A stretch of 6,420 nt of DNA. Origin: a virus (Duplodnaviria > Heunggongvirae > Uroviricota > Caudoviricetes). The notes beneath the pieces are model-generated. The model was not told the DNA's origin. It saw only the letters and a list, made by a program, of their open reading frames with translations, and did not search any database. Shown piece after piece: positions 1,430-1,506 of the stretch. The position numbers and the translations under genes are program-made. Positions within the stretch are counted from its first letter, which is position 1; each line of letters begins with the position of its first letter. The DNA lies in IMG/VR virus record IMGVR_UViG_2675903352_000008. One strand, given 5' to 3'.

Positions 1430-1506
1430 CCGCCACTAGCTCATCAGGAAAGAGCGTCAACCCTTTAAGTTGAGTGTGCGAGGTTCGAGTCCCCGGTGGC
1501 GGTCCA
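1430..1506 (+). tRNA. tRNA-like gene with atypical anticodon loop CCTTTAA (formal anticodon UUU, C at position 33)
   Basis: Perfect 7-bp acceptor stem CCGCCAC/GTGGCGG, D-arm GCTC/GAGC with GG in loop, anticodon stem TCAAC/GTTGA, T-arm CGAGG-TTCGAGT-CCCCG, discriminator T, encoded CCA. Only the anticodon loop is non-canonical. Confidence 0.6.

Follow-up and report, generated by a model that had tools for sequence, protein, structure and literature searches.

Clusters of tRNA genes are known from the late region of Stx phages, which hold ileZ, argN and argO between the Q antiterminator gene and the lysis genes. The argN family is already known, and the member of it that is considered here has been annotated in many genomes. 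Phage tRNAs have also been studied as targets and evaders of anticodon nucleases, of which PrrC, RloC and PARIS AriB attack tRNA-Lys(UUU). PrrC cuts the bond directly 3' of U33 (PMC2610378) and reads the anticodon, its base modifications and the base pairing of the anticodon stem-loop (PMC2610378; PMC1950546); according to the work on AriB, the nuclease of PARIS, PrrC needs ct6A37 (PMC12409363). AriB itself needs the sequence U36-A-A-U-C|A41 together with U16, so that U39A abolishes cleavage and A41C or U16C impairs it (PMC12409363). Position 33, a near-universal U, bears on modification as well: the E. coli TsaBCDE enzyme does not place t6A37 on a U33C tRNA, for which C33 is an anti-determinant (PMC8887486; PMC9654439). 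C33 alone is not lethal to a tRNA, since yeast tRNA-Leu(GAG) carries it naturally and works about as well as its U33 version (PMC13492127). We analysed a 6,420-nucleotide stretch of DNA from the IMG/VR virus record IMGVR_UViG_2675903352_000008 (the window), in which the second gene of a four-tRNA cluster (slot 2) combines C33 with the anticodon UUU. The features of the window are as follows.

402 to 1097, + strand: open reading frame whose position agrees with that of the Q antitermination gene annotated in the matching RefSeq chromosome.
1206 to 1229, strand not assigned (the scan reported the - strand): G+C-rich hairpin with A and T runs on its flanks.
1315 to 1343, + strand: predicted sigma-70-type promoter TTGCAA-17 nt-TATTAT from the promoter scan, ending 9 nt before the first tRNA.
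1353 to 1428, + strand: first tRNA, anticodon CAU, a homologue of ileZ (ARAGORN, Rfam; labelled tRNA-Ile by PGAP).
1430 to 1506, + strand: tRNA-like gene in slot 2 of the cluster (ARAGORN; Rfam, 44.4 bits; alignments).
1462 to 1468, + strand: its anticodon loop, CCUUUAA (sequence, alignments).
1509 to 1584, + strand: third tRNA, Thr(UGU), copied from host thrU and differing from it only by G57A.
1588 to 1662, + strand: fourth tRNA, Gly(UCC), identical to host glyT.

The part of the window from 1300 to 1700, which contains the whole four-tRNA cluster, was 100% identical to part of the E. coli 377323_2f chromosome. The RefSeq gene order there is RusA, antiterminator Q, the four tRNAs, YagU on the opposite strand, holin/lysozyme/Rz, PerC and terminase, and this gene content places the cluster in the late region of a lambdoid prophage of E. 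coli. The position of the Q open reading frame puts it in the same late-operon slot that ileZ, argN and argO occupy with stx in the Stx phages. The four tRNA genes are separated by spacers of 1, 2 and 3 nt in that order. In K-12 the genes thrU and glyT belong to the tufB operon and have tyrU between them, and in the window only 3 nt separate the two copies. It seems that the prophage cluster either took up the host thrU and glyT genes or exchanges sequence with them. Although the modules upstream of the cluster were otherwise unrelated from locus to locus, both promoter hexamers and their spacing were kept across loci (-35 TTGCAA, TTGCAG or TTGATT, -10 TATTAT, 17 nt apart), so the tRNA cluster probably has its own dedicated promoter besides any Q-dependent read-through. 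Another promoter-like sequence, TTGCAA-17-TATATT, was observed at 1081-1109, at the end of gene Q, with a strong hairpin about 100 nt further on; we take the interval 1081-1236 to resemble the lambda pR'/6S RNA/tR' unit on which Q acts.

The slot-2 gene is 77 nt long and has an argN-family backbone with anticodon UUU, C33, U73 and an encoded CCA. Its 5' half reads CCGCCAC UA GCUC AUCAGGAAA GAGC G UCAAC CCUUUAA and its 3' half GUUGA GUGUG CGAGG UUCGAGU CCCCG GUGGCGG U CCA, and its acceptor stem (7 bp), D stem (4 bp) and anticodon stem (5 bp) are all perfect. In the loop, C32 is base 1462, C33 base 1463, U34-U36 bases 1464-1466, and A37 and A38 bases 1467-1468. An earlier note on this DNA had described a 7-nt loop CCTTTAA with C33 and anticodon UUU, and this description was borne out by ARAGORN, by the Rfam model RF00005 and by a register scan. 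ARAGORN, a check that the note had itself proposed, called tRNA-Lys(ttt) at exactly 1430-1506. RF00005 aligned over its full length (bases 1430-1503, model positions 1-71 of 71) with the same 7-nt loop CCUUUAA and a score of 44.4 bits against a threshold of 29, compared with 64.9-73.8 bits for the three neighbouring tRNAs. In the register scan, in which every 5-bp stem with a 7-nt loop was enumerated across the slot-2 region, 5/5 stem pairs were obtained in the C33 register alone. Registers with U at loop position 2 reached at most 3/5 pairs; the alternative U33 fold was rejected on this count, and with it the better-scoring U33 fold that the note had named as its possible undoing. The cloverleaf had an energy of -25.5 kcal/mol, about equal to the unconstrained minimum of -25.0 kcal/mol. 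The unconstrained fold was not a cloverleaf and was set aside as uninformative, since tRNA sequences without their modifications commonly behave in this way and the energy of the cloverleaf equals the minimum. The note had slightly overstated its case in calling the cloverleaf canonical with all arms well formed: the fold stands, but the T stem contains an A51.C63 mismatch, which is common to argN of the Stx phages. The other near-universal positions of the window copy (U8, A14, G18G19 and the T loop UUCGAGU) are present, with C in place of U at 33 as the exception. Among 111 distinct predicted tRNA sequences from all the loci fetched, a base other than U33 was found only in 19 alleles of the slot-2 gene and in two calls from an unrelated metagenomic tRNA array, so that C33 is rare. 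Hundreds of E. coli genomes, and isolated phages as well, contain the identical 77 nt, and C33 is therefore not a sequencing oddity.

Alignments to argN, host tRNA-Lys and tRNA-Arg, which the note had also asked for, showed 84.4% identity of the slot-2 gene to argN(UCG); among host genes the figures were 51.9% for lysT and 64.9% for argU. Identity was 85.7-88.3% to a set of Arg(UCU) alleles that fill slot 2 of the same ileZ-X-Thr-Gly cluster in other prophages, and reference genomes of E. coli and Shigella flexneri contain the arrangement ileZ-Arg(UCU)-Thr-Gly together with the C33 allele. These Arg(UCU) sisters have the same anticodon stem (UCAAC/GUUGA) and the loop CUUCUAA, from which the window loop differs by two changes, U33C and C35U; from the loop CUUUUAA of host tRNA-Lys it differs by U33C as the single change (6/7 positions the same). 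Stem differences from argN(UCG) keep the pairing or better it: pair 30-40 went from G-C in argN to A-U in the window with both sides changed, and pairs 27-43, 7-66 and 3-70, which are wobble pairs in argN, are Watson-Crick pairs in the window gene. Covariation across the family backs all four helices, with 96.4% of cells paired and four pairs in which both partners have changed; none of 500 shuffles came up to the observed score. By homology and by its slot after Q and ileZ the gene belongs to the argN family, and its identity to lysT does not bear out common descent with host or phage tRNA-Lys genes. As judged from these alignments, the gene is arginine by descent and lysine by anticodon alone, and the Arg(UCU) alleles of slot 2 presumably represent the ancestral state. 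The earlier note had weighed three options, a Lys-like tRNA, a degenerate Arg-like tRNA and a tRNA-derived RNA of some other function, and had held that its identity could not be settled from sequence. For ancestry the comparison did settle it: the option of a degenerate Arg-like tRNA is supported as to origin (84-88% identity to argN and the Arg(UCU) alleles, in the same slot), and the Lys-like option holds for the anticodon UUU and fails for descent (52% identity to host tRNA-Lys). As to charging and decoding the note was right that sequence does not decide.

The gene is widespread in E. coli. Of 5,426 complete E. coli genomes, 2,132 contained an argN-family gene and about 750 had a best copy at least 95% identical to the window gene; the arrangement of slot 2 plus thrU was found in about 630 genomes. 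The window haplotype was matched at 99% or more in 240 complete genomes and the Arg(UCU) version in 29. In an unbiased IMG/VR sample, anchored on the flanking tRNAs alone, about 113 of 121 loci had the C33/UUU allele in slot 2 and 5 had Arg(UCU). All UUU alleles of the slot-2 gene have C33. Single-step intermediates between the two loops were searched for in both orders. The U33-UUU form gave no match in IMG/VR with tight flanks and two matches with loose flanks, neither of them a tRNA; in JGI metagenomes it gave three matches, one an unrelated tRNA-Lys in a large tRNA array and two that were not tRNAs. The C33-UCU form gave one match in IMG/VR, which was not a tRNA. A scan of GTDB found the family to be essentially limited to Escherichia and Shigella, with single matches in Serratia, Edwardsiella and Citrobacter, a confinement that makes deep comparative tests impossible. 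In seven IMG/VR contigs (L140, L156, L032, L047, L059, L063 and L087) the third tRNA, derived from thrU, was found to carry G35U and A26G. This variant of the Thr backbone has the loop CUUUUAA with anticodon UUU, A73 and 74.2 Rfam bits, and it adjoins either Arg(UCU) or a recombinant C33/UUU allele in slot 2. The cluster thus contains a second shift of anticodon to Lys(UUU), independent of the first.

Slot 2 was more variable than its neighbours. In the flank-anchored sample its diversity (pi) per site was 0.038, compared with 0.005 (ileZ), 0.012 (thrU copy) and 0.016 (glyT copy), or 3-7 times that of the neighbours. This comparison may be biased, since homogenisation against their host counterparts could have affected the copies of thrU and glyT. 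Segregating sites made up 47% of slot 2 and 16-26% of the neighbours. Counted as mutational events per site, slot 2 exceeded the neighbours by a factor of only 1.1-2.5, much of the extra diversity coming from one old haplotype. Intergenic flanks failed as a neutral yardstick, being mosaic modules with a pi of about 0.3, and within one shared downstream module the divergence was lower than in the slot-2 gene; the diversity comparison is for these reasons only indicative. The window sequence was found in 59 of 112 full-length C33 copies, and about half of the slot-2 copies carry further damage. U8C was present in 32 of the 112, together with C4U and C11U, and G18A in 4; a 1-nt deletion in the D stem characterises a PPompW-type clade, and in a single copy 7 nt of the anticodon arm are missing. 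The frequent lesions (U8C, the D-stem deletion and G18A) gather around the D arm, where C11U keeps its pair, and among stem variants seen more than once pairing was kept in 7 of 8 cases. The damaged variants scored below the Rfam threshold of 29 bits, while neighbours in the same loci scored 57-74 bits. The major haplotype, that of the window, has an intact cloverleaf at 44.4 bits, against 43.0 for Stx-phage argN. The loop CCUUUAA was kept even in copies with a decayed D arm; from the overall density of events about 2.7 loop changes would be expected and 1-2 were seen, a deficit that is not significant. A sequence of the same family in Edwardsiella hoshinae (L172, 1226-1302) has a scrambled anticodon arm, a 2-nt 'anticodon' in ARAGORN and 30.8 Rfam bits, and its sequence indicates that the anticodon arm of a slot-2-type gene has decayed elsewhere too. 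One from Citrobacter amalonaticus (L174, 2-75), matched by the same T-arm pattern, likewise gave a 2-nt 'anticodon' in ARAGORN. The neighbours are not entirely lesion-free: in a minority ileZ haplotype, present in 6 IMG/VR loci, GGGTCAAAT replaces GGTTCAAAT at the start of the T loop (position 54), and the anticodon stem is changed as well.

The identity elements of the gene suit neither synthetase well. Arginine identity in bacteria rests on A20, C35 and U/G36, A20 being the main determinant for E. coli ArgRS, and lysine identity on the UUU anticodon and A73, any change at 73 lowering charging (PMC9976931). The slot-2 gene has A20, U35, U36 and U73. The lysine anticodon U34-U35-U36 is there, as TTT at bases 1464-1466; the arginine set is broken at position 35, and position 73 holds U in place of A, with G there in a single rare haplotype. 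Because of U35 and U73 the RNA is predicted to be a poor fit to both ArgRS and LysRS, and the gene, while descended from the argN family, would not qualify as a bona fide tRNA-Arg. Its U36-A37-A38 would make it a substrate for t6A37 if U33 were present; with C33, by the sequence rule, it would not be one.

The best explanation, in which our confidence is about even, is that the slot-2 gene is a non-decoding relic kept inside the tRNA operon. It builds on the observed ancestry, the two-step loop difference, the prevalence of the allele, the extra damage in many copies and the conservation of the promoter; a loss of charging and decoding and a role in processing are what it would add to them. 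U33C and C35U would have turned the loop CUUCUAA of a tRNA-Arg(UCU) into CCUUUAA. Decoding would most probably have been lost, with the ArgRS determinant C35 gone, A73 for LysRS absent and the U33 of the U-turn replaced, and C33 would block the formation of t6A37 by the E. coli enzyme. Transcription would continue from the cluster's own promoter in a four-tRNA precursor, and the gene would persist because it is closely linked to three tRNAs that are of use. In E. coli, the tRNAs of closely packed operons are separated by RNase P. We infer that the acceptor/T-arm shape may still be needed for RNase P cuts between tRNAs that lie 1-3 nt apart, and release of the 3' end of the ileZ homologue would depend on cleavage at the 5' end of slot 2. 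A retained RNase P shape would explain why the lesions gather around the D arm while the acceptor and T stems still pair. The reading also leans on the PGAP annotation, which leaves the copies of 96-97% identity without a label, and on the wrecked anticodon arm of the Edwardsiella relative. Counting against it, the C33/UUU allele greatly outnumbers its Arg(UCU) sister (about 113 against 5 loci, 240 against 29 genomes), the intact major haplotype scores as well as argN, which is generally taken to be functional, and its loop agrees at 6 of 7 positions with that of host tRNA-Lys. The working C33 tRNA of yeast and the modest excess of 1.1-2.5 in event rate weigh in the same direction.

The main rival, which we regard as plausible but rather unlikely, is a working lysine tRNA that would be charged by LysRS through its UUU anticodon, read AAA and AAG, and resist the anticodon nucleases PrrC, RloC and PARIS AriB. 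A nuclease-proof tRNA-Lys would sustain translation of the prophage or host once host tRNA-Lys(UUU) had been destroyed, a benefit that we consider doubtful to the same degree. The loop equals that of host tRNA-Lys save at position 33, C33 adjoins the point of cleavage by PrrC and is expected to preclude t6A37 in E. coli, and the elements that AriB needs are absent, slot 2 having U36-A-A-G-U-U41 and C16. The prevalence of the C33/UUU allele over its presumed Arg(UCU) ancestor, the failure to find a single-step intermediate (in IMG/VR, and for U33-UUU also in JGI metagenomes), the conserved promoter from which the cluster could be expressed in lysogens, and the second independent UUU shift in the neighbouring thrU copy at 7 IMG/VR loci all favour it. 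Loss of t6A37 should, however, weaken decoding by a tRNA-Lys(UUU), which counts against a nuclease-proof lysine tRNA. Lesions at near-universal positions in about half of the copies, which bring them below the thresholds of the tRNA model while the linked tRNAs stay above, would be unexpected under selection for decoding. The missing AriB site and C16 were inherited from the Arg backbone and did not newly evolve, and the adjacent Thr(UGU), the other main target of AriB, is host-like and presumably cleavable. In that Thr(UGU) copy the AriB site is complete and U16 is present, and the idea of the whole cluster as a coherent anti-PARIS set was ruled out on this ground. Phage variants of tRNA-Lys that overcome PARIS or a PrrC system are known (PMC12409363; PMC11555353; hypothesis in PMC10264068), but U73 in place of A73 is unfavourable for LysRS (PMC9976931), and our literature search found no data on C33 and cleavage by PrrC. 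The more specific form of this reading, in which the prophage would have 'armoured' a lysine tRNA by converting a spare tRNA-Arg into a UUU decoder, with C33 blocking t6A37 and altering the PrrC junction and the Arg-type stem and D loop lacking the AriB site, we think unlikely. A tRNA-shaped RNA with a non-decoding job, either a decoy or competitor for an anticodon nuclease or for LysRS, or a slippery near-cognate tRNA that tunes frameshifting on A-rich sequence, appears improbable. The AriB study raises inhibition through competition from overexpressed viral tRNAs (PMC12409363), and the loop CCUUUAA is kept in copies with a decayed D arm; a single origin and recent spread would explain that invariance equally well, given the 2.7 changes expected and 1-2 seen. 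Tuning of frameshifting, for which the lambdoid tail-chaperone slip site would be an example of a target, is no less improbable. Gly and Lys tRNAs decode GGGAAAG, the classic G-T slip site of lambda, and the cluster also holds Gly(UCC). It is least probable of all that the RNA still accepts arginine through A20 and delivers it at lysine codons as a low-level mistranslating tRNA: the gene has U36 and A20, on which E. coli ArgRS chiefly relies, but C35, also a major determinant, is lost (PMC9976931), C33 and the lack of t6A37 would limit decoding anyway, and a mistranslating tRNA of such prevalence would probably be counter-selected.

The descent of the gene has consequences for annotation. Sampled copies at least 98.7% identical to the window are labelled tRNA-Lys by PGAP/RefSeq, and the sampled copies of 96-97% identity are those left unannotated. 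The PhiR47_1 record also labels the identical gene tRNA-Lys, the phage records ON470580.1 and ON470583.1 list Met, Thr and Gly only (ON470580.1 holds the identical 77 nt), and the U8C and D-stem-deletion variants are unannotated in RefSeq, with PPompW GenBank records calling the D-stem-deletion form tRNA-Lys. The label covers an Arg-derived gene of doubtful function, and tRNA counts or codon-supply models for E. coli prophages that include slot 2 may be wrong. The locus is also a clean example from nature of how an anticodon shifts within a cluster of phage tRNAs; in the literature, as far as our incomplete coverage of it went, we found no description of an Arg-to-UUU shift with C33 or of its prevalence or decay pattern. 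If the nuclease-proof reading were true, about 1 in 7 E. coli genomes would carry a temperate-phage lysine tRNA that survives anticodon nucleases. The story of T5 against PARIS and PrrC would then extend to prophages and position 33 would gain a new role; no counter-defence tRNA of this kind from a temperate coliphage, and no use of C33 to this end, would have been described before.

The gene shares features with several known systems. Like argN of the Stx phages, a tRNA-Arg(UCG), it follows Q and ileZ and precedes the lysis or stx genes, and the two are alike in C1-G72, U73, A20 and an identical T arm including A51.C63, at 84.4% identity. They differ in the loop, CUUCGAA (U33, anticodon UCG) in argN against CCUUUAA in the window, in pair 30-40, which is G-C in argN against a compensatory A-U, and in what lies downstream, argO in the Stx cluster and the thrU and glyT copies in the window. 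The Arg(UCU) alleles of slot 2 share the cluster context, the anticodon stem and 85.7-88.3% identity, but have the loop CUUCUAA (U33, C35), a perfect T stem and 52-56 bits, and show compensatory changes among themselves. Host tRNA-Lys of the lysT family has the same anticodon and 6/7 loop positions, and differs in overall sequence (52% identity), in A73 and U33, and in the AriB site UAAUCA that it retains. Natural C33 also occurs in functional tRNAs such as yeast tRNA-Leu(GAG) and the initiator tRNA-Met of multicellular eukaryotes (PMC13492127; PMC8887486). Those C33 tRNAs, unlike the slot-2 gene, are conserved under clear selection, and in the case of the initiators co-evolution has made the t6A machinery tolerant of C33, which that of E. 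coli is not. [quoted passage not shown] The T5 molecule is, however, a variant of tRNA-Lys(UUU) whose rescue from PARIS was proven experimentally (PMC12409363), whereas the window gene has an Arg-derived body with C33 and U73.
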